A stretch of 64,000 nt of DNA, taken from contig CP179887.1 of the NCBI GenBank assembly GCA_047456295.1, positions 367,159 through 431,158 on the forward strand, read 5' to 3'. The notes beneath the pieces were generated by a model. That model made no database searches, was not told the origin of the DNA, and saw only the letters and a program-made list of their open reading frames with translations. The position numbers were made by a program, and so were the translations under genes. The DNA is from Candidatus Nealsonbacteria bacterium (GTDB lineage: Bacteria > Patescibacteriota > Minisyncoccia > Minisyncoccales > JANBVM01). Below are positions 34,891-56,072 of the stretch, piece by piece; within the stretch, counting starts at the first letter, position 1; every line of letters begins with the position of its first letter.

Positions 34891-34910
34891 AATTTTTAAG
34901 TTTTGATTAA

Positions 34911-36176: not shown

Positions 36177-36197
36177 TTTTTTCTTATGAGCTCTATT

Positions 36198-37526: not shown

Positions 37527-37528
37527 AA

Positions 37529-39196
37529 TTATCTAACAACCCCCATTTGATTAGTTATGGTTGGATCATCTGGCAGGGTTGTGTTTATTGCTGGCGCCAA
37601 GGCCTCAATCGTTGTTTCTGTCCAGCTGTCTTCTCCTGTTATTCTTGCCTCTCTAATAATTTCAGCGGTTTGATGTCTCTGATAACTGAAGGGAGTAAAA
37701 GCAACCTGGAAAGCAAGGGTTAAACCCTGTTTAGAAATACCCGTCCCTTTTTGCAAATCCCCCACTGACCAGACAATTTCTCTTGACTGGGAATCAAAGG
37801 TGAATCTTGAAATCTCTTGTTCAGGAAAAATCTCTCCGGTTAATTCTACATTCTGTGGCATGACAGCTTTTACTTTTGCATTTCTCACATCAGAATAATA
37901 GTTTTTCACCTGCCACATTATGGTATAAGTGGTGGTATCTCCCACTGCTGGCGGAACAGGTCCTGAATTTCCAAAAACCTCATCCTGGAAATATCCTTTT
38001 TGAATTATTTCCATTTTTGAACTGATCCTGGTAATAAACTCTTCTTTTGCCTCTCCAATAAATATCTTATTCCTCAAGATAGAATTTTTAACATTTCCCA
38101 GATCATCCTTTAATTTTATCCAGAATTCAACCTTTCCTTCTTCCAAAGGAATCAAATATTGCAGTTTAGAAACCTTTCTCCAGTCAAAAACCACAGAACT
38201 GTCTCCTGCTTGATAATTGCCTAAATCTGATTTAATTGTCTCAAAATCAAAAGCTTCTCCCTCGAGATTGTTAACCATGAATAAATTATTTAAACTCTCC
38301 TCTCCTATGTTTTTAAAGTAGATTTCATAATGCAGCCAGTCACCTGGCAGAGCCATGTGTTGGGGATTTCCGTTAATCTCCTGCCTGAGATAAAGGAAGG
38401 GTCTTACAATCTCCACCCCTTTGACAATTTCTTTTAATAAAATGAATTCATCTTGCTTCCAAACCCCTAATTTAGCCTTAAACACCCTGGCTTCTCCCAC
38501 TTCTCCTGAGAGTTTGCCGGTAATCTCAATCCTTCCTCCTTCTGATTTATTTAAAACAGGGATATCCCATTCTGTCTTCTCAATAGATTTGGGAAGAGAG
38601 TTAATAAATTCAAAACTAAAAGGATACTCAATCTGACACCTCAGGTCGGTTAAAAGATAATCTGCATTGGAAAAGTAGTTTATTCTGAAAATAAAATCTT
38701 TACCTCCAGCTACCTTGGAAGGCAAGTCAAACTCAAGAGTCAGGGGAACTGATTTTATCTGGCTGGTAAAACTGGAAGAGGATTCATATTGGGCTTTTAA
38801 ATCCTTTGGCTGATAGGTTAAGGAAACCCTGGCTATCTTTATTTCATCTTGCTTTCCCAATATTGTCATTTTGAAAGAAAAAGTCTTTTCCTCTCCAGGA
38901 TAAATCGCCTCTCCCAACTTCTCTGGTCCCAGAACCTGTCTTTCAAATATCTCTCCTTCTTTAAAAGAGTATTCCGGCGGCTCAAAGATAAGCTCTGGAT
39001 TATCCAGACGGAAGTTACCGTTGTTTTTATATCTGACAATATATTCCACTTCCTGACCAAGGGTAATCTCAGAGAGGCCTAAAATCTCTAATCTTAATAT
39101 CTCCTTTGAATAAATATTGCTCTGCCACCTCCAAATAAAACCAGCTATCCCGGCAACAAGGAGCAAAATAATTAAAAAACTAAAAAACTTGTTCAT
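37529..39196 (-). CDS. Hypothetical membrane-anchored protein with repeated beta-sandwich-like modules (555 aa)
   Basis: N-terminal TM (FFSFLIILLLVAGIAGFIW). Four segments show the G-x-V/L-x-Y-x-I-x-hydrophobic-x-N motif (GQEVEYIVRYKNNG, DFIFRINYFSN, GDWLHYEIYFKNIG, GDTTTYTIMWQVKN), reminiscent of DUF11/CARDB-type repeats. Confidence 0.6.
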   Translation of the reverse strand: MNKFFSFLIILLLVAGIAGFIWRWQSNIYSKEILRLEILGLSEITLGQEVEYIVRYKNNGNFRLDNPELIFEPPEYSFKEGEIFERQVLGPEKLGEAIYPGEEKTFSFKMTILGKQDEIKIARVSLTYQPKDLKAQYESSSSFTSQIKSVPLTLEFDLPSKVAGGKDFIFRINYFSNADYLLTDLRCQIEYPFSFEFINSLPKSIEKTEWDIPVLNKSEGGRIEITGKLSGEVGEARVFKAKLGVWKQDEFILLKEIVKGVEIVRPFLYLRQEINGNPQHMALPGDWLHYEIYFKNIGEESLNNLFMVNNLEGEAFDFETIKSDLGNYQAGDSSVVFDWRKVSKLQYLIPLEEGKVEFWIKLKDDLGNVKNSILRNKIFIGEAKEEFITRISSKMEIIQKGYFQDEVFGNSGPVPPAVGDTTTYTIMWQVKNYYSDVRNAKVKAVMPQNVELTGEIFPEQEISRFTFDSQSREIVWSVGDLQKGTGISKQGLTLAFQVAFTPFSYQRHQTAEIIREARITGEDSWTETTIEALAPAINTTLPDDPTITNQMGVVR

Positions 39197-39942
39197 ATGT
39201 TCAGTGTATCAAATTGACCGGTTCTCTCCAAAATAAAGGATAGATAGTCTTTTGATATCTGTTCTAATAATTTATAATGTTTATCTTCAATCTTTAACCT
39301 GGGCATAATGTTTTTATCCTTGTTTAAAATAATCCTCAATATCTTTACCGTATCAGGATCAATCTCTTTGCCAAAACCCTGTTTTGAAAAGCAAGACTGG
39401 CAGATTACTCCTCCTTCCTTCTGGCTGAAATACAGTTTTTCCGGTCTTAACTTTTCCCGGCACACAGGACATTGGTAAAATTCAGGACCGTAACCTAAGA
39501 TAGAGAGGAGATTCCAAAAAAAATAATGATAAATTAATTTTGGGTTTTTGATTCCCAGCTTACCGCTATTTAATTCTTCAAAAGCCTCTTTTAATAAATT
39601 CCAGATTCTCTCCTCTTTCTCCTGCCCCTGAATCAAACCATCTAAAACTTCTGAAATATTATATGCAATGGTTAATCTTTCCAAATCTTTTCTTAAATCT
39701 TTAAATTTCTCTATCAATATGGCGTCGGTAAGGGTTTTGTAGGCTTTACCCTGAATAAACTCAATTTCTGATAAATAAAAAATTTCCATTCCCGACCTAA
39801 GCTTTGAAGATATCTTCCGTATGGCTTTTCCCAAAATCTCTAACTTCCCGAAATCTTTTGTGTAAACAATAAATAGCTGGTCAGCTTCTTTTCTATCAAG
39901 TTTTTTTAAAATAATTCCTTTAGTCCGGTAATGAATAAACAT
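39193..39942 (-). CDS. recO: DNA repair protein RecO
   Basis: N-terminal OB-fold region and zinc-finger CPVC...CQSC; typical length. Confidence 0.85.
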   Translation of the reverse strand: MFIHYRTKGIILKKLDRKEADQLFIVYTKDFGKLEILGKAIRKISSKLRSGMEIFYLSEIEFIQGKAYKTLTDAILIEKFKDLRKDLERLTIAYNISEVLDGLIQGQEKEERIWNLLKEAFEELNSGKLGIKNPKLIYHYFFWNLLSILGYGPEFYQCPVCREKLRPEKLYFSQKEGGVICQSCFSKQGFGKEIDPDTVKILRIILNKDKNIMPRLKIEDKHYKLLEQISKDYLSFILERTGQFDTLNI

Positions 39943-39950
39943 CTAAATCT

Positions 39951-40358
39951 CTATTTTTTTCTAAAAATCTCTCTCATCAATCTTAACCCTTGCCTTGCCT
40001 TTAGCTGTCCTTTTGCAGTAGGTCCATGGGCTTCTCTCCTTAATTCTTTTAACACCTTCCTTTCTTCTCCTTTTTTAATGAAATACCTTTTTCCCTTGAA
40101 TCGCTTTTCAAAAAATTCACTTCTTTGCTTCTTTGTCATTCCACCAGTCTTTGTAAAAAGACGGGGGTCTGTAAATTTCCGCTTAAGCTCCTTTTTGGAA
40201 AGAGAACCTTTACCCTTACCCTTCCAAATATCTGTGTCTTTCTTTATATCTGTATCTTTCTTCACTTCAGTTCTTTTTTCTTCTCGACGAGAGGAAGGAA
40301 CTTCAGGTTTTTTTCCTTTCTGGGTGAATTGTTGTTTTTTTTCGCTTAACAAAGACAT
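39951..40358 (-). CDS. Hypothetical highly basic protein (135 aa) with internal KKDTDI tandem repeat
   Basis: Lys/Arg-rich ORF between ileS and recO on the same strand. An 18-nt tandem duplication lies at 40227-40262. Confidence 0.55.
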   Translation of the reverse strand: MSLLSEKKQQFTQKGKKPEVPSSRREEKRTEVKKDTDIKKDTDIWKGKGKGSLSKKELKRKFTDPRLFTKTGGMTKKQRSEFFEKRFKGKRYFIKKGEERKVLKELRREAHGPTAKGQLKARQGLRLMREIFRKK

Positions 40359-40367
40359 AAAATTTAA

Positions 40368-43300
40368 TTAAGATTCTAAATTTTCGACCTTTGAAATTTT
40401 CTTAATGGATAGTTGCAACTTTTCTCCCTCGATATTAACTTCTTTCTTTATTTTGAATTTTCCTCCTTTACCTGACTTTAAATCTTTTGCCCTTGTCCCT
40501 TTTATAATCTTCTCCTTGTTTTTTAACAAGAGCTCAGTTATATGAGAACCTCCATTAAACTGGATTGATATGACATCTCTGGGAGTAAAGCCTGCTTCCT
40601 TTCTCATTTGCTGGAGGTTTCTGAGAATTTCTCTTAATATCCCTTCTTCTTTTAATTCAGGAGTGATTGTTGTATTTAATTTAAGGCTTTTGCCAAAGCT
40701 GATTTTTTTTACATTGACTTCTTTTTTAATCAAATCCAATAAATCTTTCTTATTCTTTAAATCGTAATCTGTGATTGTTAATTCGTTTAATGATTGACGA
40801 GTCTTAATCTTGGCTTTGGATCTTTCAGCTAAAGCTAAAGCTACTATCTTTCTGACTTTTTCCATTTTTTTATTCAAGTTTTTATTAATCAGTTTCTTAT
40901 CTGCTTTCGGCCAATCATCCAGATGAACGCTTCTCACGTTTTTAGTTCCAATCTTTAAATCCTGAATATTTTTATAAACCTCTTCACTTAAAAAAGGAAT
41001 GAAGGGAGCTGTTATCTTGCTTAAGGTTAATAACACAAAACCTAAAACCTCAGAAGCTTCTTTTAATTCTTTCTCTGTTTCTGGTTTCTGAAATCTTTTC
41101 CTTGACCTTCTGATATACCATAAAGAAAGGTTATTAATGACAAAGTTTTCAATTAAACGAGAAGCTGAGGTAATATCGTATTTGTTCAATAAATCCGTTA
41201 CCCCTAAAATTAATTCATTTAATCTGGAAATAATCCATCTGTCTAGAATATTTTTACTCTTTGGTTTTTGCAATTTTGTTTTAAAACGGTCGCTGGCTAT
41301 ATAGATAGCAAAGAATGAAAAACAATTCCAGAAAGTCATGATAAACTTTTTCAGTTTTTCCTCAACATCTTTTTCTGAAAATAATTTCGGGTCGCCGGGT
41401 TGGCTAACGGTATAGAAATACCAACGAACAGCATCTATGCCGTATTTTTCAGCAACATACAAGGGATCCACCACGTTTCCCTTTGATTTGGACATCTTTT
41501 CTCCTTTTTCATCCAGAATATGTCCCAAAGAAATAACATTCTTATAACAGGAACCCTTATTGAGCAAGGTTGAAATGGCCAGCAGGGTATAAAACCAGCC
41601 CCGGGTCTGGTCTACTCCCTCTGAAATAAAGTCTGCTGGAAACTGCTTTTTTTGATTAATTAATTTTTTGTTTTCAAAAGGATAATGGTATTGGGCAAAA
41701 GGCATTGAACCTGCATCAAACCAGCAATCGATTACTTCTGGAACCCTTTCCATTAAATCCCCGCATTTTTCACAGTAAAATTTCACCTTATCAATGTAGG
41801 GCCGGTGAAAATCTAATTCTGCTTTATCATTAAAAGGCATTAAGGTAAATTTTATTTTCCTCAATTCCCCTGTCTTTATCATCTTTTTCTGTAAAAACTC
41901 TCTCACCAATTCTTGCTGGGACAATCCTTTCATTGCTCCTTCCAACATCCACAAAGGATCTCCATGGCTGACAATTAAAATGGTTTTGTCTTTATATTTC
42001 TTATCAATATCCCTTATAAACCTGAGTGTCCTTTTTCTGCAATTCAGCCAGGTTTCCCCACCATCTGGTTTTCTATAAAACCTTTCCTTTGCATTGTTGA
42101 AATCGCTATAAAATTCATCTTTTGATTTTCCGTGATAAACTCCCAAATTCACGTCTCTAAGCCTTTTGTCAAACTTCACCTTAAGATGAAGTTCTTTATT
42201 AATAATTTCTGTGGTTTGTTTGGTCCTGAGATAATCTGAAGAAAAAATTAAATCAATGTTAGTTTTTTTCAGCCTTGGTATTAAAGCTTTTATTTGGCTT
42301 TTTCCTTTCTTGGTCAATTCCACAGAAAGTTTTTGTGAATGGGGGTAAACTATTTTTTTTAGTTTGGTCTGGTGAATTGTTTCTCCATGCCGCAAAATAA
42401 AGTATCTGTTGCTGCTGTATTTTTGTTCTGAGAGATCTTTTTTGCTGCCAATCATTTCCAGGTTCCGACACCCCCTACACTCCCAGACAGGCAAAGGGGT
42501 TCCCCAATACCTTTCCCTGGAAAGGGCCCAGTCTTTTACCTCTCTCAGCCATTCTCCGAACCTGCCCTCTTTCAGGTAAGCTGGAACCCAGTTGATTCTT
42601 TTATTATTCCTAATCAAGTCTTTTCTAACTTTCCTCATCCTGATAAACCAGCTCTTTTTTGCATAATAAAGCAAGGGATTTTTACATCTCCAGCAAAAAG
42701 GATAATCATGTTCATATAATTCTTCTTTAAATAAAAGATTTCTTTGTTTTAAATCTTTAATTATTAAGGGGTCAGCGTCCTTGAAAAACATTCCTGCCCA
42801 TTGTTTAACATCAAGGGTGAATCTTCCTTCTTTATTAATGGTCAATAAAATCGGAATTTCAGGAATCTTTTGAATTTTATGTTTTTTATTCTGGGATTTA
42901 ACTGCCTCCATATCTTCCACCCCAAAAGCAGGGGCAATATGAACAAGACCTGTTCCTTCTTTTAAAGAAACAAAATCACCGGGAATTATCCTGTAAGCAT
43001 TCTTGGAAACCTCATCTGTTGAAGGATAAAGACCCTCATATCTTAAATCAAGCAAATCCTTTCCTTTAAACTCTTCTGCAACCTCTCCTTTAACACCGCA
43101 AGCTGAAACCCTTTGTTTGGCTAATATTAAATATTCATTATTAATCTTTACCTTCACATAAGTAAAATCAGGATTTAAGGCAATAGCCACGTTTCCTGAC
43201 AATGTCCAGGGGGTTGTTGTCCAAACCAATAAATAGGAATCTTTGAATTCTAAATTCCTTATTCTGAATTTAATGTAAATGGCAGGTTCTTTTATTTTCT

Positions 43301-43877
43301 TATAACCCTGAGCTACCTCGTGGGTAGAAAGAGAAGTACCGCATCTAGGGCAATAATGAACAACCTTAAAATCCCTGTACAGCAATCCTTTCTTATAAAT
43401 CTCTTTTAAAATCCACCAGACTGATTCTATATAATCTGGATCATAGGTAATGTAAGGATCATCCATATCCAGCCAGAAACCAATTCTCTCTGTTAGTTTC
43501 TCCCAATCCCCTTTGTATTTCCAGACAGAACCTTTACATTTTTTGTTGAATTTTGAAATCCTGTATTTCTCAATGTCTTTTTTTGATTTTAAACCCAGCT
43601 TCTTTTCAACTTGCAGTTCAACGGGCAAACCATGGGTGTCCCAGCCTGCTTTTCTCACAACCCTAAAACCCTGCATTGTTTTGTATCGACAAACAATATC
43701 TTTAAAAACCCTGGTTAAGACGTGGTGAATCCCGGGCTTTCCATTGGCTGTTGGCGGACCCTCATAAAAAACAAAATTAGCCTTTTTCTTTCTTTTTTTC
43801 AGGCTCTTTTTAAATGTTTCATCTTCCTTCCAAAATTTCAGGATTTTATTTTCTAATTTTGGAAAATTAACCTTCAT
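40368..43877 (-). CDS. ileS: Isoleucyl-tRNA synthetase carrying an internal histidine-phosphatase domain
   Basis: HHVLTR (HIGH-type) and KMSKS motifs, CP1 editing domain, zinc knuckles; 1169 aa including an in-frame insert of about 200 aa. Confidence 0.93.
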   Translation of the reverse strand: MKVNFPKLENKILKFWKEDETFKKSLKKRKKKANFVFYEGPPTANGKPGIHHVLTRVFKDIVCRYKTMQGFRVVRKAGWDTHGLPVELQVEKKLGLKSKKDIEKYRISKFNKKCKGSVWKYKGDWEKLTERIGFWLDMDDPYITYDPDYIESVWWILKEIYKKGLLYRDFKVVHYCPRCGTSLSTHEVAQGYKKIKEPAIYIKFRIRNLEFKDSYLLVWTTTPWTLSGNVAIALNPDFTYVKVKINNEYLILAKQRVSACGVKGEVAEEFKGKDLLDLRYEGLYPSTDEVSKNAYRIIPGDFVSLKEGTGLVHIAPAFGVEDMEAVKSQNKKHKIQKIPEIPILLTINKEGRFTLDVKQWAGMFFKDADPLIIKDLKQRNLLFKEELYEHDYPFCWRCKNPLLYYAKKSWFIRMRKVRKDLIRNNKRINWVPAYLKEGRFGEWLREVKDWALSRERYWGTPLPVWECRGCRNLEMIGSKKDLSEQKYSSNRYFILRHGETIHQTKLKKIVYPHSQKLSVELTKKGKSQIKALIPRLKKTNIDLIFSSDYLRTKQTTEIINKELHLKVKFDKRLRDVNLGVYHGKSKDEFYSDFNNAKERFYRKPDGGETWLNCRKRTLRFIRDIDKKYKDKTILIVSHGDPLWMLEGAMKGLSQQELVREFLQKKMIKTGELRKIKFTLMPFNDKAELDFHRPYIDKVKFYCEKCGDLMERVPEVIDCWFDAGSMPFAQYHYPFENKKLINQKKQFPADFISEGVDQTRGWFYTLLAISTLLNKGSCYKNVISLGHILDEKGEKMSKSKGNVVDPLYVAEKYGIDAVRWYFYTVSQPGDPKLFSEKDVEEKLKKFIMTFWNCFSFFAIYIASDRFKTKLQKPKSKNILDRWIISRLNELILGVTDLLNKYDITSASRLIENFVINNLSLWYIRRSRKRFQKPETEKELKEASEVLGFVLLTLSKITAPFIPFLSEEVYKNIQDLKIGTKNVRSVHLDDWPKADKKLINKNLNKKMEKVRKIVALALAERSKAKIKTRQSLNELTITDYDLKNKKDLLDLIKKEVNVKKISFGKSLKLNTTITPELKEEGILREILRNLQQMRKEAGFTPRDVISIQFNGGSHITELLLKNKEKIIKGTRAKDLKSGKGGKFKIKKEVNIEGEKLQLSIKKISKVENLES
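41820..42425 (-). other. Histidine phosphatase superfamily (PGAM-like) domain inserted within IleRS (about residues 486-686)
   Basis: YFILRHGET, LTKKGKSQ, SSDYLRTKQTTEI, DKRLRDVNLGVYHG, PDGGETW, ILIVSHGDP give the full branch-1 catalytic motif set. Flanked by IleRS blocks WECRGCRNLEMIGS and DFHRPYIDKV. Confidence 0.8.
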
Positions 43878-43959
43878 ATATAATTTAGACTATCATTTTT
43901 ATCGGCTCTTTTCAATAAAAACCCTTGAAATAAGGGTTCTTATAATACATTGTTTCTGA

Positions 43960-44448
43960 GTGGGAAAAGGGGTGTTGGGGATTTATGATTCAAACAAGAA
44001 GACCCAACTAGAGTATGAGGGTAAAACATATGATTGGGATGATTATGTAAAGATTCAAAATATAGCTAACCGAGAAACTGTAATTATAGCCAAGATAGAG
44101 AACGATTGGATAAGTAGTGGTTTAATGCCAAAAGAATTTATCGAGACAGAAGAGTTTGAAAAGTCAATTTTGGAAATAAAAAAGCTTTGGGTAAAACATA
44201 ATCCCAAAGCAGAGAAATTATCAGTGATGGAAATATCGCTAGCATTAGAGGAAAGATTAGCAAATTCCCTAGGTGAAGACATTACTTCAGCCCGAAAATG
44301 GTTGAATGTTCAGTTGGAAAGAGCTAAAACTCCCGAGGAAAAGAGAAAATGGAAGGAAAAGTATGAAGAAATCCGAAAAATGAAACTAATTGACAGTATT
44401 AAGAGATTATCAAAAACAGCAAGAGAAATTTATTTAGAAACTGAATAG
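43960..44448 (+). CDS. Hypothetical protein (about 160 aa, helical/charged)
   Basis: Open frame with GTG/TTG candidate starts after GGAAAAGGGG. No family recognised. Confidence 0.5.
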   Translation: MGKGVLGIYDSNKKTQLEYEGKTYDWDDYVKIQNIANRETVIIAKIENDWISSGLMPKEFIETEEFEKSILEIKKLWVKHNPKAEKLSVMEISLALEERLANSLGEDITSARKWLNVQLERAKTPEEKRKWKEKYEEIRKMKLIDSIKRLSKTAREIYLETE

Positions 44449-44451
44449 GGA

Positions 44452-44688
44452 TTAGAAATAGATAATAATATCTATAAAAAAGCGAAAGAACTGGATAAAA
44501 CCAATTATAATTCCTATTATAAGGATTAAAATTCCGATATTTCCTAACCAGTCTTTATATGTTTTGACAGTAAGAGGTATAAATTTTTTAAAAAAAGGTT
44601 TTCCTGCCCAACAATAAATCCCAACGGTAATTAAGATAATGGAAATTAACCCAATTGTTTCTATAAATTGTTTTAATGTGGAGTTCAT
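44452..44688 (-). CDS. Hypothetical small membrane protein (2 TM)
   Basis: Two hydrophobic helices. The ATG at 44688 (MNSTLKQF) is preferred to the TTG at 44718. Confidence 0.45.
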   Translation of the reverse strand: MNSTLKQFIETIGLISIILITVGIYCWAGKPFFKKFIPLTVKTYKDWLGNIGILILIIGIIIGFIQFFRFFIDIIIYF

Positions 44689-44695
44689 AAAAAAA

Positions 44696-45067
44696 CTAAA
44701 ATGGATAAGCAAAACCAAATGTCAATGTACGAATTATATTTAAAATAACGCAAGTTACAAATAAAATTCCAATATATTTTAATAAAGTTTTCCAATTCCG
44801 TTTTTCTTCCCTTTCTTCGTTAAAAACATAATAAGGTAAATAAAATAATCCACCAGAAAAAATAACATCAGAAAAAAAGACAGGAACTAAGAAAGGGGAA
44901 AAGACAAAAAGTAGGGCGCCAGTATATATTGGATGAAGCCAGAAAGCATTAACTAAAAATATAATTCCCGAAATTAAAGAGACAACAAACAAAATTATAA
45001 GAATAATTCCAAGAGGAATTTTAATAACAGAATATCCACTTTTAGGATGAAACCACCATTTCCACAT
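44696..45067 (-). CDS. Hypothetical membrane protein (123 aa, 3-4 TM)
   Basis: Hydrophobic segments throughout; ATG start. Confidence 0.5.
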   Translation of the reverse strand: MWKWWFHPKSGYSVIKIPLGIILIILFVVSLISGIIFLVNAFWLHPIYTGALLFVFSPFLVPVFFSDVIFSGGLFYLPYYVFNEEREEKRNWKTLLKYIGILFVTCVILNIIRTLTFGFAYPF

Positions 45068-45097
45068 TCTTTAATAATAACATAAAAACCCATTGTT

Positions 45098-45127
45098 AAA
45101 CAAACCAAAAGTCCCCTTATGGGGACT
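45098..45127 (-). terminator. Rho-independent terminator downstream of the ACU tRNA
   Basis: Minus strand AGTCCCC-ataa-GGGGACT (perfect 7-bp stem) followed by TTTTGGTTTGTTT. Confidence 0.6.
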
Positions 45128-45266
45128 GATGGCGACGAAGAAGAAAAAGCATAAATTGCTAAATCTTCTGTCAGATAACTCATTGGTTATTTACCAAGAG
45201 TCACATCCTACTGTTTTAATTATAGTAATAATTAAAAAGGTGTGTCAAGTGGATAGACAAGACATA

Positions 45267-45338
45267 TGCCCCCAGAAGGATTTGAACCTTCCCCGACATC
45301 TTAGTAGGATGTAGCTCTGTCCAATAAGCTATGGGGGC
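45267..45338 (-). tRNA. tRNA with anticodon ACU; class I cloverleaf with Arg-like features
   Basis: Acceptor GCCCCCA/TGGGGGC, D arm GCTT-ATTGGACA-GAGC, anticodon arm ACATC-CTACTAA-GATGT, 4-nt variable region, T arm GAAGG-TTCAAAT-CCTTC, discriminator A. Folded by hand. Confidence 0.8.
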
Positions 45339-45351
45339 ATATGCCAACTAC

Positions 45352-45380
45352 ATTTTATCAATCTAAAAAAATTGGGTCAA
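45352..45380 (-). promoter_or_regulatory. Sigma70-like promoter (TTGACC-17 nt-TAAAAT) 13 nt upstream of the ACU tRNA
   Basis: Minus strand TTGACCcaatttttttagattgaTAAAATgtagttggcatat then tRNA G1. It shares the 18-nt string TTTGACCCAATTTTTTT with the nrdD promoter. Confidence 0.55.
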
Positions 45381-45385
45381 ACGAT

Positions 45386-45562
45386 ATGTTAGAACAAAAT
45401 AAAAAAGTAAATTGGACAATCTTTTCTTGGGCAATAGGAATCATCTTTGCTCTGTTTGTTTGGGTATTTGGTGGGATGGCAGCAATCAATGGAAGAATAA
45501 ATCAAGCTAATGGCGATGTTTCAAAAATGGAAAAGGAGATTTTAGAACAGCTTACTAAGTAG
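45386..45562 (+). CDS. Hypothetical small membrane protein (58 aa, 1 TM)
   Basis: MLEQNKKVNWTIFSWAIGIIFALFVWVFGG... The ORF-track start at 45341 would overlap the tRNA and its promoter. Confidence 0.4.
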   Translation: MLEQNKKVNWTIFSWAIGIIFALFVWVFGGMAAINGRINQANGDVSKMEKEILEQLTK

Positions 45563-45757
45563 ATATCTTATAATAATTAAGATTAGTGATACCGTAACCC
45601 AAATTCCAAAATCTTCTGGATTGAACAATATCACGGAAAAAAATCCACCAATAATTATAAGCCAATACATTGCTTCAAGATAGAAGATAAAGTTTTCTTT
45701 AGAAGAATAAGAAATTCTTTCATCATTCCGTCCGACCATATCTGTTAGTTTGCTCAT
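45542..45757 (-). CDS. Hypothetical small membrane protein (71 aa, 2 TM)
   Basis: ATG start and two hydrophobic helices. Its 3' end overlaps the convergent 58-aa ORF by 21 nt. Confidence 0.4.
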   Translation of the reverse strand: MSKLTDMVGRNDERISYSSKENFIFYLEAMYWLIIIGGFFSVILFNPEDFGIWVTVSLILIIIRYLLSKLF

Positions 45758-45797
45758 AATTTAAATATAATAGCACAAATTTTATATATTAGTTCTT

Positions 45798-46376
45798 TCA
45801 TAAGTTATTATTGAATTTTAATTCCTTCATTACTTCATCCCGAACTAAAAGAGAAGCAGCTTCTAAGATAACCCTAACATTTATACTATTTTTGAAAGCA
45901 TGATCTTTAATGGGTTTCATCATTGGGTCATCGATTAGATCATTTAGCAATACATTTTTAGAATATTCCTGAATATCATAATTTGTTTGAGGTCTGTGAG
46001 ATTTAACCGCATTGATAATTTTATCTCTATTTTCTTTAAAAACTTTAGGAAAACCACTCTCATTAACAAGTTTTTTACCATAATCAGTCAAAACAAGAGG
46101 ACTACCAGGTTTCATAGTTAAAAGATGGAGGATCTCCCGTCCTTGTTCTTCAAAATAAGGTTTAAGAAATGATTGAATTTCTGCAATGGCATTGTTTAAT
46201 TGATTTAATGCTCCTGTTAAATCCGTTTTAAGAAAATTAAAACAAATAATTAGTATAAAGAATAAGAATAGTATAATTACGGCACTATTAATATTAATAA
46301 TATTTGTAACAACAAGACCAAAAACAGATCCTATAACAAGTACGATTCCGCCTATAATTGTAAATAATTCATTCAT
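45798..46376 (-). CDS. Hypothetical membrane-anchored protein (192 aa; 2 N-terminal TM plus soluble domain)
   Basis: ATG start, N-terminal hydrophobic helices, C-terminal domain of about 120 aa with no family recognised. Confidence 0.55.
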   Translation of the reverse strand: MNELFTIIGGIVLVIGSVFGLVVTNIININSAVIILFLFFILIICFNFLKTDLTGALNQLNNAIAEIQSFLKPYFEEQGREILHLLTMKPGSPLVLTDYGKKLVNESGFPKVFKENRDKIINAVKSHRPQTNYDIQEYSKNVLLNDLIDDPMMKPIKDHAFKNSINVRVILEAASLLVRDEVMKELKFNNNL

Positions 46377-46646
46377 TTTAACAAAAATTAAAAAACGGCC
46401 CTCTTTTATTTCAGGATATTGGCCGCAAAAAGGATTGTTTTAATAAAATCCTTCATCAATTTCATTATTAAAAAATCGGAAGTCATTGTCAAGCAAAAAT
46501 AAGGAGGAAATCTATTTTTTTCTCGCATATTGATTACTCTTCATTTGTATAGAACGAAGTTTATAGCCACATTTACGAGAATAGCATTTTATTCTCTTGT
46601 GAGCACGAGGCACCTCAAACGCTTTATTATAAATAAGGGTAGCTAT

Positions 46647-48371
46647 CTACATCTTTTCTAAGACCATAATCCCTAAGAGATTTAAGCCGTTTTTAACGAT
46701 TTGACAGGTTCCATTAACCAAAGCCAAACGGGCCATCTTTAATTTTTTGGTCTCTGCTTTTAACACAGGTAAAGATTCATAAAAAGCATTAAAGGTTTGG
46801 GTCAATTCAAAAAGAAAGTTAGAAATTAGATTTGGGCTGTAGCTTATTGCTGCTCGCTCAACCACTTCTGGAAACTGAGATAACAATTTCAATAATGTAA
46901 TTTCCTTTTCTTCTTTCAACTCTATTTCTTTAAACTCCTGTTCTTTGATTTTTGACTTCCTTAAAACGCTACGAGCCCTGGCATAAGCGTACTGAAGATA
47001 GGGGCCAGAATTGCCCTCTAAAGAAATTGATTCATTAATATCAAAAAGCATAGCTGTCAGTGGCCTTATTTTCAAGAATGAATATTTTACTGCTCCAACA
47101 GCTATTATTTCTGCCGAATCATTAGGAATATTGCTAAAATTTTCTTGAATCCTTTTTTTTACTTCATCTAAAAGCCATTGACCCTTTATAATATTCCCTT
47201 TTCTGGAACTCATTTTTCCTTGTTTAAGACTTACCCACCCAGAGACAAGGTGGTATTCTTTTCCCTTGGTATAAGGAAAGACTTGAGTTAAAGCCTTAAA
47301 AACAACCTGGAAATATTCTTTTTGCTCTGGCCCGACATTATGAATAACTAAATCAGGCTTGTATTCTTTAAACTGCAGTCTTCCCAGCTCCATGTCTTTT
47401 GCTTCATAAGTAGGGTTGCCTTCAGAAGTTATGAAAACCCTGTCATGTAAGCCATATCTTGAACCAGGAAATATGACAGCTCCCTTGCTTTTAATAAAGG
47501 TTCCTTTTTTTAAAGCTTTTAAAACAATATCTTTTCCTGGTTGAGCAACTTCTCCTTCAAAATAGTATCTGTCAAAATGAGTGTAAACCCTTTTATATAT
47601 GTTTTCAAAATAATCCAAACTCCACTTTCTTGTTTTCTGCCAGAGATCTTTAATTTCAGGATCTTTATCATATATCTGATTGTTGATTTTTAAAATTGTC
47701 TCCTTTGCCTTCTCATCTTCCTCATAGGCTTTGTTGCCAGCAACATAATACTTTCCTAGAAAATCAACTTTTTCGTTTATGGTTTTTAGTTGATTAATTT
47801 TAGCTTCTAAATCCTTTATCTCTTTCATTGCCCACAAGCACTTGGCAATATGAAGACCAACATCTCCCTGATAATTTGCTCTGATTATTTTAAAACCAGA
47901 AGTTTCCAAGATTCTTGCTATTGCCTCACCATTGGTAATGTTTCGTAAATGACCGATATGGAAGAGTTTGTGGGTGTTTGGATGAGCATACTCAACCATT
48001 ACTGTTCTGCCTTTTCCAATATTGCCTGAACCATAATGTTTCTTCTCTTTTAAAATCTTCTTGAGCTCGTTTGTAAAAACACTCCTTGAAATAAAAAAAT
48101 TAATAAAACCAGGTTTGACAATTTCAACCTTCTCAAAGATTGGAGAATCTAAAGCTTGAATTTTGAGTTTTATTAATCGTGCTGTCTCCATCGGGTCTTT
48201 CTTAGTTTTTTCAGCAATCCTCATTGCAAGGTTTGTCGTGTAATCTCCGTGAGACTTTATCTGGGGATGTTTAATGTTAATCTTGGAAAGGTCAAATTCG
48301 GGAAAAACCCCTTCTTTTTGAAGGTCTTTTATGACTTTCTTTATTGAATTTAATATTTCTTCTCTTAACAT
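46647..48371 (-). CDS. argS: Arginyl-tRNA synthetase
   Basis: HIGHLRN motif, N-terminal Add-1 domain, C-terminal DALR anticodon-binding domain ending in the canonical ...M. Confidence 0.93.
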   Translation of the reverse strand: MLREEILNSIKKVIKDLQKEGVFPEFDLSKINIKHPQIKSHGDYTTNLAMRIAEKTKKDPMETARLIKLKIQALDSPIFEKVEIVKPGFINFFISRSVFTNELKKILKEKKHYGSGNIGKGRTVMVEYAHPNTHKLFHIGHLRNITNGEAIARILETSGFKIIRANYQGDVGLHIAKCLWAMKEIKDLEAKINQLKTINEKVDFLGKYYVAGNKAYEEDEKAKETILKINNQIYDKDPEIKDLWQKTRKWSLDYFENIYKRVYTHFDRYYFEGEVAQPGKDIVLKALKKGTFIKSKGAVIFPGSRYGLHDRVFITSEGNPTYEAKDMELGRLQFKEYKPDLVIHNVGPEQKEYFQVVFKALTQVFPYTKGKEYHLVSGWVSLKQGKMSSRKGNIIKGQWLLDEVKKRIQENFSNIPNDSAEIIAVGAVKYSFLKIRPLTAMLFDINESISLEGNSGPYLQYAYARARSVLRKSKIKEQEFKEIELKEEKEITLLKLLSQFPEVVERAAISYSPNLISNFLFELTQTFNAFYESLPVLKAETKKLKMARLALVNGTCQIVKNGLNLLGIMVLEKM

Positions 48372-48383
48372 GAAAAGGCAACT

Positions 48384-49667
48384 TTAAATATTTTTTTCTA
48401 AAATCTCTTTAGCTCTTCCAAGTTCAATCCTTTTTTCTCTAATCATTTTATTGGCTACCTTTTCAATCATTTTTCCTTTTGCTCCAGCTTCCATAGCAAT
48501 GTTTTTGGCATGCAACCTCATATGACCTGACTGAATTCCTTCTACAACCAAAGCTCTTAAGGCCCCCAGATTTTGAACCAAACCAACAGAAGCTATCACC
48601 TGAGCAAGTTCTTGAGCTGATTTAATCTTTAAAATCTTCAAGGAAATCTTGCTTATTGGATGAATCTTGATTATTCCCCCCAATATTCCAATTGTTATAG
48701 GAACCGTCATTTCACCGACCAAATCTCCCTGTTTATTCTTTCTCCAGCGAGCCAAAGGTAAATATCTTCCTGATTTGGCAGCAAAGCCATGAGCTCCTGC
48801 TTCAAGTGCCCGCCAGTCATTTCCAGTAGCCAAAGCCACTGCTCCCATTCCATTTAAAATTCCTTTGTTATTAGTAACAGCCCGATAGATATCAATATCA
48901 GCTATGGCTTGAGCCTTAACAATCCTCTGGATTACTTCTTTACCTGAAAAACCTTTCATTGTTAAAGCTTTTTTTGTCACCATTGCTTTTACCTTTACCA
49001 ATCTCTTTTCAGCTAAATTGGAAACTATTTTCAAAAGAGCTTCCCTTCCTACAATCTTTTCAATCAATGGCGCTGTTCCTTCAATTATTGTATTTACTGT
49101 ATTAGCTCCCATAGCGTCTCTGGTATCTATCAATAAATGAATCCTTAAAACTGAACCTATCTCTTGGCTTTTAAAAAGCTTCACCTCCAGACCCCTTACT
49201 CCTCCCCCTATTTTTACCAAATCAGGTTTCTGCTGATTGGCAATTTTTAAAATTTCTTGTTTGTTTTTTAAAATCCTTAGCTTTGCTCTTTTGGGATTTT
49301 TCAAATCAACAACATAAATCTGACCTATCATTAAATTTCCTAAATTCTCAGCTGATATACCCCCGCTCTCCCTTGTCAATCTTGCACCATAACAGGCAGC
49401 AGCTACCACTGAAGACTCTTCAGTAACCATTGGTACAAGATATTCTTTTTTATTAATGAGAAAGTTTACAGCAATAGAATATGGAAGAGGAAAGGTACCA
49501 ATAACGTTTTCAACCATTCTATCCCTTATTTCTGAATCAAAAATCCCTTTTTCAATTATTTTAACTTCTTTATTAGTTAAATCAGCAAAATCTTTAACTA
49601 TTTCAATTTTTTTCTTTCTGGATAGTTTAAAAAATCCAGGAATCCTACTGCTTTTCTTTCTTTTCAT
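48384..49667 (-). CDS. Hydroxymethylglutaryl-CoA reductase (class II type)
   Basis: About 427 aa with no membrane domain; EESSVVAAA, DAMGANTVN, GTVGG-like (IGILGG) and ...HMRLHAKN motifs. Confidence 0.85.
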   Translation of the reverse strand: MKRKKSSRIPGFFKLSRKKKIEIVKDFADLTNKEVKIIEKGIFDSEIRDRMVENVIGTFPLPYSIAVNFLINKKEYLVPMVTEESSVVAAACYGARLTRESGGISAENLGNLMIGQIYVVDLKNPKRAKLRILKNKQEILKIANQQKPDLVKIGGGVRGLEVKLFKSQEIGSVLRIHLLIDTRDAMGANTVNTIIEGTAPLIEKIVGREALLKIVSNLAEKRLVKVKAMVTKKALTMKGFSGKEVIQRIVKAQAIADIDIYRAVTNNKGILNGMGAVALATGNDWRALEAGAHGFAAKSGRYLPLARWRKNKQGDLVGEMTVPITIGILGGIIKIHPISKISLKILKIKSAQELAQVIASVGLVQNLGALRALVVEGIQSGHMRLHAKNIAMEAGAKGKMIEKVANKMIREKRIELGRAKEILEKNI

Positions 49668-49747
49668 ATTTTAATAAAATGTATCCCTCAATCTTATTGA
49701 AGGCTTGTCAATTTAAGCTTATCTAATTTTTCTGTTAAAATCAAAGT

Positions 49748-49830
49748 ATGAAAGAAATTACCAGAAATAAAAAAGCCTAGTTTGATCATAAAATCTTGAA
49801 AAAGTCCATAGCTGGAATTTCTTTGATGAG
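49748..49830 (+). pseudogene. Decayed duplicate of the smpB 5' end
   Basis: ATGAAAGAAATTACCAGAAATAAAAAAGCCTAG... matches smpB 50363-50445: 31 of the first 32 nt are identical and, by hand count, roughly three quarters overall. There is an in-frame TAG at codon 11. It is preceded by TGtTAAAAT at 49733-49741. Confidence 0.8.
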
Positions 49831-49842
49831 AAAACAAACAAT

Positions 49843-49871
49843 TTGACAAATATTACTTTAGAAATTATCAT
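49843..49871 (+). promoter_or_regulatory. Consensus-like promoter of the toxin-antitoxin cassette (TTGACA-17 nt-TATCAT), -10 ends 7 nt before the ATG
   Basis: TTGACAaatattactttagaaatTATCATaaagttgATG read directly. Confidence 0.55.
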
Positions 49872-49878
49872 AAAGTTG

Positions 49879-50100
49879 ATGAGTCAAAAAACTTTAGAAA
49901 AAATAAATCGAGAAATTTCTAATCTCAAGGGAGAAATGAAAATCTTTCGTTCTCTTATTATTGGACTTTTAGGTAAAGATCGAGAAGGAGAATATAGATC
50001 AGAATTTGTAAAAAAAATTTTAAGGCTCTCTAAAAAAAGAGCAGGTTTTGCCTTTAAAAATGCTGAATCTTTCCTGAAACAAATCCAAAAAAGCTTATGA
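49879..50100 (+). CDS. Putative antitoxin (73 aa)
   Basis: Small ORF immediately upstream of, and overlapping (ATGA), a RelE/ParE-family toxin. The antitoxin family was not recognised. The ORF-track start at 49843 is the TTG of the -35 box. Confidence 0.6.
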   Translation: MSQKTLEKINREISNLKGEMKIFRSLIIGLLGKDREGEYRSEFVKKILRLSKKRAGFAFKNAESFLKQIQKSL

Positions 50101-50366
50101 TTCGAATAATCTATAGTAAGCACTTTTTAAGGGAAACTAAAAAATTCCCCACAAATATTCAGACAAAGCTCGCAGAACAATTAGAGCTCTTACAACAGAA
50201 TCCTTTTCATTCCTTTTTACACACTAAATCTTTAACCGGTCGACTAGCCGGTTTTTATTCGTTTAGAATTACTCGGGATTGGCGGGTGATTTTTCAATTT
50301 AAGAAACCAGAGATTATAAAGTTAATTGGAATTGGTCATCGTAAAGATATTTATAAAGAAAAGTGA
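50097..50366 (+). CDS. RelE/ParE-superfamily toxin (89 aa)
   Basis: ...LTGRLAGFYSFRITRDWRVIFQFKKPEIIKLIGIGHRKDIY matches the RelE/StbE-type consensus (R-x-G-D/x-Y/W-R-hydrophobic-I, ...GHRKDIY). Confidence 0.8.
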   Translation: MIRIIYSKHFLRETKKFPTNIQTKLAEQLELLQQNPFHSFLHTKSLTGRLAGFYSFRITRDWRVIFQFKKPEIIKLIGIGHRKDIYKEK

Positions 50367-50815
50367 AAGAAATTACCAGAAATAAAAAAGCCTACTTTAA
50401 TTATGAAATCCTGAAGAAATTTGAGGCAGGGATTTCTTTAATTGGCCAGGAGGTAAAATCAATAAAATCAGGAAGAATAAACCTGAAGGGAACTTATGTA
50501 ATATTAAAAGACCAAGAGGTCTTCTTGGTGGGAGCCAATATCCCTCCTTACCAGCCCAAAAACGCCCCCCCTGATTATAATCCCAAGAGGTCAAGGAAGC
50601 TTTTGCTTAAAAAGCCTGAAATCAAGTATTTAATCGGCAAAACAAAGCAAAAAGGTTTGACAATTGTGCCTTTAAGGGTTTATACTATAAAAAGAAAAAT
50701 AAAGTTAGAGTTTGCTCTGGCCAAAGGAAAGAAACAATTTGACAAGAGAGAAATAATCAAAAAAAGAGAAACAGAAAGGGATATAAGGAAAATAATAAAG
50801 GGAGAAAAACCTTAA
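50363..50815 (+). CDS. smpB: SsrA-binding protein
   Basis: NKKAYFNYEILKKFEAGISLIGQEVKSIK pattern. GTG start overlaps the toxin TGA (GTGA). The tmRNA gene lies 22 nt downstream. Confidence 0.9.
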   Translation: MKEITRNKKAYFNYEILKKFEAGISLIGQEVKSIKSGRINLKGTYVILKDQEVFLVGANIPPYQPKNAPPDYNPKRSRKLLLKKPEIKYLIGKTKQKGLTIVPLRVYTIKRKIKLEFALAKGKKQFDKREIIKKRETERDIRKIIKGEKP

Positions 50816-50837
50816 GGGCTGCAATCAAGAAAATATT

Positions 50838-51176
50838 GGGGGTGACATGTTTCGACAGAAATTTAACCAAGAAAGGCAGGTGGAGTATTCTCAAATCTCC
50901 TAAAACTTTGAGAAAAAAATAAGTGCCAACTTATTTCAAAAACCTGCATTAGCTTACGTCTAATGCCATCTGCCTTATTGATTCTCGATAAGTAAGGTCA
51001 GGTGTCATATATCGAGATAGATAGTTTTTAAAGACCTAGAAAAGCTATTGAAAAAACAGGTCAAAAGCAGAGAAATTTTGTCCAATTTAAATTTTCTGTT
51101 ATTCTTTAATTGGAATAAACTTGTAGAACTGCCTTGGTGATAATTTTTGGACGCGAGTTCATCCTCGCCACCTCCA
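50838..51176 (+). ncRNA. ssrA: tmRNA (SsrA)
   Basis: 5' GGGGGTGACATGTTTCGACAG pairs with 3' CACCTCC, giving a G3:U wobble. T arm GCGAG-TTCATCC-CTCGC. PK1 is formed by GGAG/CTCC plus TCTCAAA/TTTGAGA. The tag frame is GCC AAC TTA TTT CAA AAA CCT GCA TTA GCT TAC GTC TAA (50925-50963), preceded by AAAAAAATAAGT, like E. coli AAAAAUAGUC. Confidence 0.85.
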
Positions 51177-51183
51177 CAAAACC

Positions 51184-51714
51184 TTGATAAAAAAACCATT
51201 AGTCAACAATAGAATAAGGGCTCCTGAAATCAGATTAATTGACGATGCCGGAAAACAGGTAGGTATTGTTTCCTTGGAAAAAGCGCTCCAGATGGCTAGG
51301 GAGCGCAATTTAGATTTAATCCAGGTTACTGACAAGGCAGACCCTCCAGTCTGTAAAATAATGGATTACGGAAAATATCTTTACCGGCTCCAGAAAAAAG
51401 AAAAAAAAGTAAAAAAAAGTACCGGAATAAAGGGGATAAGGTTAAGATTCAACATATCTTCACACGATTTGGAAACAAGAGTTCTCCAAGCAGAAAAGTT
51501 TCTAAAAAAAGGAAATAAAGTAAAGGTGGAAATGGTTTTAAGGGGAAGAGAAAAAAGGCTTTCTAGGTTTGCCAAAGAGAAAGTAAGTCAATTTATCGAG
51601 GATTTAAAAAAGAGGATTCCGATAAAACCCGAGGGGGAATTAAAAAGAACTCCCAGGGGTTTCATAATAATTATTTCAAGCAGTAAAGAACAACAAACAA
51701 CAAAAGACAATTAA
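51184..51714 (+). CDS. infC: Translation initiation factor IF-3
   Basis: NNRIRAPEIRLIDDAGKQVG and the YGKYLY...KKQK linker; non-ATG (TTG) start as is common for infC; infC-rpmI-rplT order. Confidence 0.9.
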   Translation: MIKKPLVNNRIRAPEIRLIDDAGKQVGIVSLEKALQMARERNLDLIQVTDKADPPVCKIMDYGKYLYRLQKKEKKVKKSTGIKGIRLRFNISSHDLETRVLQAEKFLKKGNKVKVEMVLRGREKRLSRFAKEKVSQFIEDLKKRIPIKPEGELKRTPRGFIIIISSSKEQQTTKDN

Positions 51715-51726
51715 TTATTTCTAACC

Positions 51727-51912
51727 ATGAAAACAAGAAAATCTGTTCTAAAACGCTTTAAATTCACTAAAACCGGCAAGGTCCTAAGAAGACAAACCGG
51801 TCTTGATCATTATCGAGCAAAAAAATCAGGGAAGATAAAAAGAAAAAAAAGAAAATTGGTAGAAGTATCGAAATCTGAGGCAAAAAAAATTAAAAAATTA
51901 TTATATACTTAA
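51727..51912 (+). CDS. rpmI: 50S ribosomal protein L35
   Basis: MKTRKSVLKRFKFTKTGKVLRR pattern; position between infC and rplT. Confidence 0.9.
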   Translation: MKTRKSVLKRFKFTKTGKVLRRQTGLDHYRAKKSGKIKRKKRKLVEVSKSEAKKIKKLLYT

Positions 51913-51917
51913 AACTT

Positions 51918-52265
51918 ATGGTTAGGGTAAAACGCGGCAAGACTGCTCACAAAAGAAGGAAACGGGTTTTGAAACAGACAAAAGGTTTTCTCTTGGGAAG
52001 GAAATCAAAATATCGCCTGGCAAAAGATGCCCTGTTTCATGCCTGGACCCACGCTTATCGGGACAGGAAAAAGAAAAAGAGGAGTTTTAGAGGTCTCTGG
52101 CAAATTCAGATTAATGCTGCCTGCAGAGAAAAAGGAATCTCTTATAGTAAATTCATTAATGGTTTGAAGAAAAATAAAATTGAAATTGACAGAAAGGTTT
52201 TATCAGAATTAGCTCGAAAACATCCAGAAATATTTGAAAAAATCGTAGAAAAGATAAAGAAATAA
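51918..52265 (+). CDS. rplT: 50S ribosomal protein L20
   Basis: MVRVKRGKTAHKRRKRVLKQTKGF... canonical bL20 N-terminus. Confidence 0.93.
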   Translation: MVRVKRGKTAHKRRKRVLKQTKGFLLGRKSKYRLAKDALFHAWTHAYRDRKKKKRSFRGLWQIQINAACREKGISYSKFINGLKKNKIEIDRKVLSELARKHPEIFEKIVEKIKK

Positions 52266-52285
52266 AAAGAGATGAAATCTTCTTT

Positions 52286-52711
52286 TTACTTTTCGCTATA
52301 TTTCCTAAGAAAGTTATTCACTTTCTTTAATGTCTCTTTGGCGTTTTTATGGGTTAACTTAATTAAAGCTTCTTTAAAAGGCGTCCATTCAAAATCTTTG
52401 TGTTCCCGGGAGAGCTTTATCTCTCTTGTTTTTGTTTCAACTAAGAAAAATACCACTGTCTTAAAAATAGTTTTACCTTTTAATTTATAAAAGTATTCTA
52501 TATTTTCTTCAAATCCTGGGATAAATTCTATGTCTTCAATTCCTGTTTCTTCTTTTATTTCTCTTTTTACTGTCTCTTTCATTTTCTCTCCTCTTTCAAT
52601 ATTCCCTTTTGGAAAATCCCAATGACCAGCTTGATAATACAAAAGAAGGTAACTTATATTACCTTTTTCTTTTCGGAAAACTACAGCTCCTGCTGACCTT
52701 TCAATTGGCAT
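52286..52711 (-). CDS. NUDIX hydrolase
   Basis: Nudix box GHWDFPKGNIERGEKMKETVKREIKEETG. Confidence 0.88.
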   Translation of the reverse strand: MPIERSAGAVVFRKEKGNISYLLLYYQAGHWDFPKGNIERGEKMKETVKREIKEETGIEDIEFIPGFEENIEYFYKLKGKTIFKTVVFFLVETKTREIKLSREHKDFEWTPFKEALIKLTHKNAKETLKKVNNFLRKYSEK

Positions 52712-52712
52712 A

Positions 52713-54437: not shown

Positions 54438-54497
54438 ATCTAATAAAGATTTTTAAATTAAAAAAATATCCTCAATCCCAATTTACCCAACCATAGC

Positions 54498-56071: not shown

Positions 56072-56072
56072 A

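Follow-up and report, generated by a model that had tools for sequence, protein, structure and literature searches.

An intact arginine-type tRNA gene with anticodon ACU on a strain-specific islet of a Nealsonbacteria genome

The window analysed here is a stretch of 64,000 nucleotides from a Candidatus Nealsonbacteria bacterium (contig CP179887.1 of assembly GCA_047456295.1), in which a tRNA gene with the anticodon ACU lies on a strain-specific islet between argS and ileS, the genes of arginyl- and isoleucyl-tRNA synthetase (ArgRS and IleRS; Table 1). ARAGORN finds two tRNAs in the window, one of them on the minus strand (45266-45339, anticodon ACT), and the same element, read from 45338 to 45267, scores 60.0 bits against the Rfam family RF00005 (gathering score 29), with all aligned stem pairs being standard. 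Counting the stems of the cloverleaf gives standard pairs at 7 of 7 positions in the acceptor stem, 4 of 4 in the D stem and 5 of 5 in each of the anticodon and T stems, that is, at all 21. The encoded RNA, GCCCCCAUAGCUUAUUGGACAGAGCUACAUCCUACUAAGAUGUCGGGGAAGGUUCAAAUCCUUCUGGGGGCA, is a canonical class I tRNA of 72 nt with a variable region of 4 nt (CGGG), the discriminator A73 and a 7-nt anticodon loop CUACUAA, in which A34-C35-U36 form the anticodon; on the plus strand, the latter reads AGT at 45303-45305. The D-loop, AUUGGACA, can be read as G18 G19 A20 C20a A21, and U8, A14, G18G19, U33 and the T-loop UUCAAAU are all in place. Less usual is the occupation of positions 15 and 48 by U and G, respectively (in our own numbering, by inspection), as against the common R15-Y48 Levitt pair. 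The gene does not encode the CCA end; yet, because the tRNA-Leu(CAA) gene of the window lacks it as well, this is no sign of a foreign or defective gene. Altogether, ARAGORN, Rfam and the stem count agree on the well-formed 72-nt class I tRNA with anticodon ACU that an original prediction, made from the letters of the window alone, had described, and the sequence bears out its assignment of base 34 to a T at 45305 of the plus strand.

ARAGORN labels the gene as a serine tRNA, which is an effect of the anticodon only. Serine identity was rejected, since the long variable arm of class II is absent, and the original prediction had rightly pointed to the mere 4 variable nucleotides, which are seen both in the sequence and in the stem count. 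On structural grounds, the gene was not classed as a tRNA pseudogene either: its stems are perfect rather than disrupted, and its score of 60 bits lies above the threshold. It might still be that the true anticodon is UCU and that an error of sequencing or assembly has disguised an ordinary accessory tRNA-Arg. ACU and UCU differ by a single base, the source is a metagenome-assembled genome, and the ACU variants in public genomes are about as frequent as one would expect of rare errors or mutations. We nonetheless consider an error highly improbable, as the flanks match the genome of a sibling strain in an orderly way and a separately assembled Logan contig (L182, run DRR463593) is identical to the window over 12,375 bases (100%), base 34 and the whole ACT included, an agreement that supports the assembly step only, given that both assemblies may share reads.

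With respect to the amino acid, the set of arginine identity elements in bacteria comprises A20, C35, U/G36 and A/G73, where A20 is the main determinant and unique to arginine, and position 34 is outside the set (PMC9976931). All four elements are present in the ACU tRNA, as A20, C35, U36 and A73. Because these determinants are intact and base 34 is not among them, ArgRS is expected to accept the ACU tRNA; the enzyme encoded next to the islet has both an N-terminal D-loop-reading domain and a DALR anticodon-binding domain.

The nearest relatives point in the same direction. A BLAST search with the 72 nt against 50,697 phage genomes returned six matches, all of them annotated as tRNA-Arg-TCT, with 85-86% identity over 64 nt; the best ones belong to Salmonella phages SE131 and 7-11, and their T stem is identical to that of the ACU tRNA. 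The search against 72,556 plasmids gave one match, on a Kitasatospora plasmid, which ARAGORN identifies as tRNA-Arg(UCU) and which has the same acceptor stem (GCCCCCA/UGGGGGC). When the gene was compared with 504 tRNAs taken from all fetched loci, leaving aside the identical copy on L182, its 29 nearest neighbours were 24 Arg-UCU tRNAs, four other ACU tRNAs and one tRNA-Lys, and its identity averaged 0.66 with the UCU and 0.50 with the ACG isoacceptors; as this set is enriched in Arg-UCU by design, the BLAST results weigh more. The claim of an arginine-type identity is thereby upheld, by a complete identity set and by relatives that are tRNA-Arg(UCU). Judged by its sequence, the ACU tRNA is a member of the tRNA-Arg(UCU) family in which the wobble base U34 is replaced by A. 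Its body is closest to the UCU isoacceptors, whereas base 34, an A, sets it apart from an isoacceptor reading AGA and AGG.

Two known arginine tRNAs help to place this combination. With tRNA-Arg(UCU) of the argU type, the ACU tRNA shares the class I architecture, A20, C35, U36, A37, A38, A73 and the loop C-U-N-C-U-A-A, and it lies on accessory DNA, as do the many phage and plasmid copies of tRNA-Arg(UCU). It departs from this type in having A34 in place of U34, which matches AGU and no longer AGA/AGG, and furthermore in its 4-nt variable region, the unusual U15/G48 and a 7-bp pairing of leader and trailer. With tRNA-Arg(ACG), the only standard tRNA of bacteria that has A34, which TadA deaminates to inosine, it has A34, C35, the loop C-U-A-C-N-A-A and the arginine identity in common, but it carries U36 instead of G36, which breaks the UACG motif for the deaminase TadA. 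The 23-mer at the 3' end of the ACU tRNA is uninformative, since it recurs in unrelated tRNA-Arg(ACG/GCG) and tRNA-Lys(UUU). A tRNA array in a 436-kb viral contig of a jumbo phage (L193/L194) deserves separate mention: it holds at least 35 tRNA genes within about 14 kb, among them four or five tRNA-Arg isoacceptors, of which the ACG isoacceptor has a T arm and a 3' acceptor strand exactly as in the ACU tRNA.

The islet that carries the gene is missing from two related genomes. In the closest relative, contig L002 of GCA_030665965.1, ArgRS is 97% identical to that of the window, and the DNA aligns at 98.4% nucleotide identity over 33949-43943 and 46647-57423; there, ileS follows 98 nt after argS, and about 30 nt take the place of the islet. 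In a more distant relative, L004 (ArgRS 71% identical), argS and ileS are directly adjacent and the islet is absent as well. The insert of 2,703 nt thus defined falls between the argS stop codon and the argS terminator hairpin, with the ACU tRNA in its middle and not at its edge, so that the description of the locus as an accessory islet, with the tRNA about 1.3 kb from argS, is confirmed by two relatives without the insert. We detected no integrase or transposase gene, target duplication or terminal repeats in the islet, and no copies of it elsewhere in the window. A tRNA with the same backbone, whatever its anticodon, was found neither in the metagenome contigs nor in the viral contigs searched, and hence there is no sign of conservation.

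The original prediction had further envisaged that an arginine-charged ACU tRNA might reassign AGU from serine to arginine, and had proposed to look at AGU codons in conserved positions. We did so for ArgRS, for an open reading frame (ORF) of 192 codons in the islet and for 14 orthologue pairs, and found that AGU behaves as a serine codon. In ArgRS, two AGT codons coincide with conserved serines, one at position 251, where all 119 homologues have Ser, and one at position 388, where 95 of 119 do, while AGA and AGG codons occupy invariant Arg columns. A third AGT codon, at position 381 in a mostly R/K column, was considered as a hint of recoding and dismissed, the column being variable in close relatives (T/N/A/H/R/S) and the codon unchanged in the sibling; indeed, L002, which has no ACU tRNA, shows no codon difference at any of the positions 251, 388 and 381. 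In the 192-aa islet ORF, AGT encodes both Ser92, which belongs to a GSP motif and is invariant (20/20 sequences), and Ser107, which is nearly so. In the comparison of the window with L004 (14 orthologue pairs), the residues listed opposite 37 AGT codons are S15, N6, D4, A4, G3, K2 and R1, arginine thus accounting for 1 of 37, whereas AGA codons in the same pairs are met by R in 81 and K in 33 cases. Since AGU is found at conserved serines and has a serine substitution profile, reassignment is rejected; on this comparative evidence, AGU is a serine codon for host and islet alike. A new tRNA conserved across the clade, as would go with a reassignment, was not found either: the gene is absent at this locus in L002 and L004, and no orthologue turned up elsewhere.

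This result agrees with a survey of over 250,000 genomes by Codetta, in which no AGU reassignment is reported; as the same paper points out, there is no known code in which codons ending in U and in C mean different things (PMC8629427). The reassignments that were described there (AGG to Met; CGA/CGG changes) concern tRNAs of the arginine box in AT-rich small genomes, as here, and were inferred from a tRNA gene together with codon usage at conserved positions (PMC8629427); our case differs from them in that the codon test is negative and the ACU tRNA is not conserved in its clade. An inosine at position 34, which had been suggested to extend reading to AGU, AGC and AGA, is unlikely as well. 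TadA requires UACG, and at native enzyme levels little or no editing is left after a single change in this motif (PMC12255301); the loop CUACUAA does not offer the motif U33-A34-C35-G36. As TadA requires UACG and the loop reads UACU, A34 would stay mostly unedited, in which state it should pair best with AGU. At a low level, Ser-to-Arg ambiguity at AGU may occur.

Codon usage also bears on whether the ACU tRNA might decode AGA and AGG after all, by way of a modification of A34 of some unknown kind or by loose reading of all four AGN codons. In the window, AGA and AGG reach 23.9 and 14.3 per 1000 codons, respectively, and make up 84% of the arginine codons, so that the demand for AGR decoding in this AT-rich genome is very high and an additional tRNA-Arg of the UCU family would be useful; moreover, unmodified A34 reads several third bases in Mycoplasma and in mitochondria. 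However, AGN is a split box, and loose reading would hit the serine codons AGU and AGC, which are in normal use. A:A and A:G are the least favoured wobble pairs, no bacterial enzyme is known to turn A34 into an A/G-specific reader, and TadA requires UACG. We thus give this explanation a poor chance.

To see how the ACU tRNA compares with others of its kind, we surveyed sequences with an exact pattern for Arg-like class I tRNAs with the loop CUACUAA. The pattern matches 17 viral contigs as well as 24 of 185,579 species-representative genomes, the latter spread over many phyla. The corresponding GCU pattern, which served as a control because this anticodon is equally illegitimate in class I, is about as common as ACU (14 viral contigs), whereas the UCU pattern has at least 120 matches in viral contigs. 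Structural integrity differs markedly between these groups: among the matches listed, 107 of 120 UCU viral controls are fully paired (on average 0.17 stem mismatches), as opposed to none of the 17 ACU tRNAs from viral contigs (2.2 mismatches), 5 of the 24 ACU tRNAs from species genomes (1.5 mismatches) and 2 of the 14 viral GCU tRNAs (3.8 mismatches). The sporadic ACU tRNAs have the same CUACUAA loop in an Arg-type body as the window copy; yet the latter is perfect, whereas most others have broken acceptor or anticodon stems, and none shares its backbone. What these sequences show resembles sporadic mutants in the wobble base, arising from tRNA-Arg copies that are redundant or hybrid, and not a selected class. 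The view that the gene is not a decaying pseudogene consequently holds for its own structure, which is intact, and is weakened by a survey in which ACU forms of tRNA-Arg are rare, unconserved and mostly decayed. Our literature search found no paper describing an Arg-type tRNA with the anticodon ACU.

Several of the surveyed tRNAs show features of their own. In L022, a phage integrase gene lies about 330 nt from the ACU tRNA, and in L159 (94-171) and L165 (4253-4329) the ACU tRNA is located some 120 nt from a transposase gene of the IS1595 family or of an IS6-like type (DDE_Tnp_IS240 and rve_3); the bins of the last two contigs are of the type of the Candidate Phyla Radiation (CPR), one being a Saccharibacteria genome and the other a contig binned as Bathyarchaeia. 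One ACU sub-type, seen in L011, L012, L015, L022, L168 and L172, has mismatches at U30-U40 and at 27-43 of the anticodon stem and covaries at 28-42 across unrelated lineages; it may be related to attachment (att) sites or represent a conserved tRNA-like family. Another type, with the anticodon arm GGTCC-CTACTAA-GTTCC, occurs in L013, L019, L023, L171, L174 and L179, where the 5' side varies to GGTGC in L019 and to GGTTC in L174 and one or two mismatches remain; it is common to alphaproteobacterial genomes and phage contigs, with differing acceptor stems. The GCU class I Arg-like tRNAs of the 14 viral contigs (L024-L037), nominally serine tRNAs for AGY, mostly have severely disrupted acceptor stems, which points to hybrids or to genes in decay.

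An own promoter and terminator had also been attributed to the gene. Both elements exist, although the hairpin can be called the tRNA's own terminator only in part. The site TTGACC-17-TAAAAT, with a TG upstream of its -10 element, ends 13 nt 5' of the tRNA; taken alone it is weak evidence, because the AT-rich stretch of 1.5 kb around it contains 10 promoter-like sites compared to 8.5 +/- 3.3 in shuffled sequences and is thus not enriched. The 7-bp terminator hairpin (45127..45110) is located 139 nt past the 3' end of the tRNA, and between the two lies a second promoter-like site, a perfect TTGACA-18-TATAAT (45248..45219), whose -10 element is part of a 10-bp AU palindrome.

The RNA around the tRNA is predicted to be highly structured. 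A CATATG palindrome at each end of the tRNA allows leader and trailer to pair over 7 bp beyond the acceptor stem, including U-1:A73, in the fold of 45100-45345, and the acceptor helix of the precursor would thereby be 14 bp in length, which is unusually long: in 160 comparison tRNAs (119 phage tRNA-Arg(UCU) and 41 other ACU tRNAs), the extension is 3 bp at most. A helix that seals the acceptor end in this manner should hinder RNase P and the trimming of the 3' end. Downstream, the 167 nt from 45100 to 45266 consist of five consecutive palindromes with a minimum free energy of -54.1 kcal/mol, compared to -28.8 +/- 3.4 kcal/mol in shuffled sequences (z = -7.5 on the minus and -6.4 on the plus strand); this segment matches no Rfam family at E <= 1 and is not repeated elsewhere in the window. 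A T-box or another known RNA in this place was discarded, there being no Rfam match and the palindromes folding equally on both strands. We likewise rejected an antisense RNA regulator at 45197-45212, just 3' of the perfect promoter-like site, where 16 nt are nearly complementary to positions 21-36 of the tRNA, since shuffled sequences give a P of about 0.04 for it and 8 of 96 control tRNA-Arg loci contain an inverted match of the same quality.

Such a structure raises the question of a role outside translation, be it as a decoy or spare for a nuclease that targets tRNA-Arg, as a primer, as a recombination site or as a regulatory RNA together with the downstream palindromes. The 14-bp acceptor helix and the five palindromes, which make up a structured stretch of 246 nt in all, are consistent with this, as are the positions of other ACU tRNAs beside integrase or transposase genes and the existence of ACU sub-families with conserved anticodon-stem mismatches. 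On the other hand, the islet has no recognisable gene for a nuclease, an integrase, a reverse transcriptase or a defence function, the tRNA sits in the middle of the islet rather than at its edge, and palindromes that fold equally on both strands need not act as RNA; moreover, neither an Rfam family nor a comparable element in the collections searched matches this stretch. We regard a role of this sort as very unlikely.

With moderate confidence, we lean towards reading the gene as a strain-specific accessory member of the tRNA-Arg(UCU) family that has changed U34 to A and is now a young dead-end or mis-sense copy outside the decoding system of the host. The gene would have arrived in an uncultivated CPR bacterium with the 2.7-kb islet and be transcribed from the promoter-like site upstream. 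Its product should still be a substrate for arginylation by the neighbouring ArgRS, and a mature tRNA with an unedited A34 would then put arginine at the AGU codons of serine, which should be harmful and costly. As a spare copy, the gene may be tolerated because it is recent or poorly matured; in particular, the 7-bp helix of leader and trailer, by sealing the acceptor end, may limit the damage in that it hinders RNase P or 3' processing.

Some observations do not fit this picture easily. The usual signs of decay are absent, in that no stem is mismatched and U8, A14, G18G19, U33 and the T-loop are kept, with U15/G48 as the only combination that looks non-canonical; upstream of the intact tRNA, moreover, there is a decent and suitably spaced promoter with an extended -10 element. 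A strongly deleterious mistranslator should be lost or broken fast, and its intactness could therefore mean that it is in use. Finally, the argument from rarity rests on an exact-pattern survey, which sees only part of the diversity of tRNA-Arg.

The most serious competitor is that the gene is an active mistranslator: expressed, matured and charged with arginine, the tRNA would read AGU, and weakly other AGN codons, and so cause a regulated or low-level substitution of serine by arginine, which might be adaptive by diversifying the proteome or be a selfish or toxic trait of the islet. In its favour are the intact cloverleaf with the full arginine identity set, the promoter-like site 13 nt upstream, an ArgRS with a D-loop-reading N-terminal domain encoded 1.3 kb away, and the 5 of 24 other ACU Arg-like tRNAs in species genomes that are fully intact, too. 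Going by established wobble rules, furthermore, a Watson-Crick pair A34:U3 should hold its own against the G:U wobble by tRNA-Ser(GCU). However, AGU is used at invariant serines in the catalytic core of ArgRS and in the islet ORF, with a frequency of 7.0 per 1000 codons in the window, so that misreading, if efficient, would come at a cost. Even within the species the islet is not conserved, the putative antisense regulator downstream does not exceed what chance would give, and the leader-trailer helix argues against efficient maturation. An active mistranslator is hence unlikely in our judgement. Its boldest form, in which tRNA(ACU) charged with arginine deliberately inserts this residue at AGU, as a mobile, horizontally transferable mistranslation module whose dosage is limited by the sealed precursor helix, we deem very improbable.

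Apart from the tRNA, the islet consists of six small ORFs, for none of which Pfam, PHROGs, PADLOC or NCBIfam gave a significant match (Table 1). The 192-aa ORF belongs to a family with the motifs NAIVEIQ, PGSPLxLTDYG, NPQTNYDIQEYS and LRDEVMKELKF; AlphaFold2 predicts an all-helical structure (pLDDT 84) with an N-terminal membrane helix and no fold match in the PDB. Its homologues come from CPR genomes only, in varied genomic contexts without an ACU tRNA nearby, and no relatives were found in viral contigs; one homologous gene, in the unrelated contig L186, has 82% DNA identity over 213 nt. The ArgRS homologues place the host in the CPR, with named matches in Microgenomates, Beckwithbacteria and Shapirobacteria. 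On the other side of the islet, IleRS contains a complete histidine-phosphatase domain (His_Phos_1), inserted at residues 493-659 within the class I catalytic region, an architecture that also exists in L002 and L004 and is thus a feature of the lineage. Further away, a small ORF and a gene for a HigB/YafQ/ParE-like toxin (49843-50366, plus strand) lie between the gene of HMG-CoA reductase and smpB, directly upstream of the gene for tmRNA (50838-51179); L002 has this pair as well, whereas L004 lacks it.

Table 1. Elements of the argS-ileS locus, in coordinates of the window
Feature	Position	Strand	Basis
Class I tRNA, anticodon ACU, Arg-type identity, no CCA	45267..45338	-	ARAGORN, Rfam, stem pairs, neighbours
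Anticodon ACU, A34 = T at 45305	45303..45305	-	Sequence; same base in L182
Putative sigma-70-like promoter site TTGACC-17-(TG)TAAAAT	45352..45380	-	Consensus scan, 10/12 matches
Predicted precursor helix with CATATG palindromes	45260..45345	-	Fold of 45100-45345
Cluster of five palindromes with promoter-like site and hairpin	45100..45266		Folding, promoter/terminator scan
Strain-specific islet, 2,703 nt, tRNA and six small ORFs	43944..46646		Alignment to L002; absent in L004
ORF of 192 aa, membrane-anchored, helical, CPR-only family	45798..46376	-	Homologues, alignment, codons, AlphaFold2
ORF of 162 aa, soluble	43960..44448	+	2 homologues among 5.8 billion proteins; no family match
Two overlapping small hydrophobic ORFs (123 aa, 44696-45067; 88 aa, 44452-44718)	44452..45067	-	ORF list
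Small hydrophobic ORFs (73 aa, 45341-45562, +; 71 aa, 45542-45757, -)	45341..45757	+ and -	ORF list
argS, ArgRS, 574 aa	46647..48371	-	Pfam PF03485, PF00750, PF05746
ileS, IleRS, 1169 aa, other flank of the islet	40368..43877	-	Pfam; adjoins argS in relatives

In summary, our analysis describes a structurally perfect arginine-type tRNA whose anticodon matches a codon that still stands for serine. It mainly calls for caution: where a tRNA gene is strain-specific, its codon keeps the ordinary meaning and copies with this anticodon are mostly decayed in other genomes, an intact cloverleaf with an odd anticodon, even if accompanied by a promoter, is no indication of a change of the code. The survey further shows that wobble-base mutants of Arg-type tRNAs are tolerated as a low background in genomes, which is useful for judging unusual tRNA calls in metagenome-assembled genomes. 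Should the gene nevertheless prove active, it would exemplify something seldom met in nature, a bacterial tRNA with the identity of one amino acid and an anticodon for a codon of another; being carried on transferable DNA, it would then bear on how drift of the genetic code starts and on natural mistranslation.

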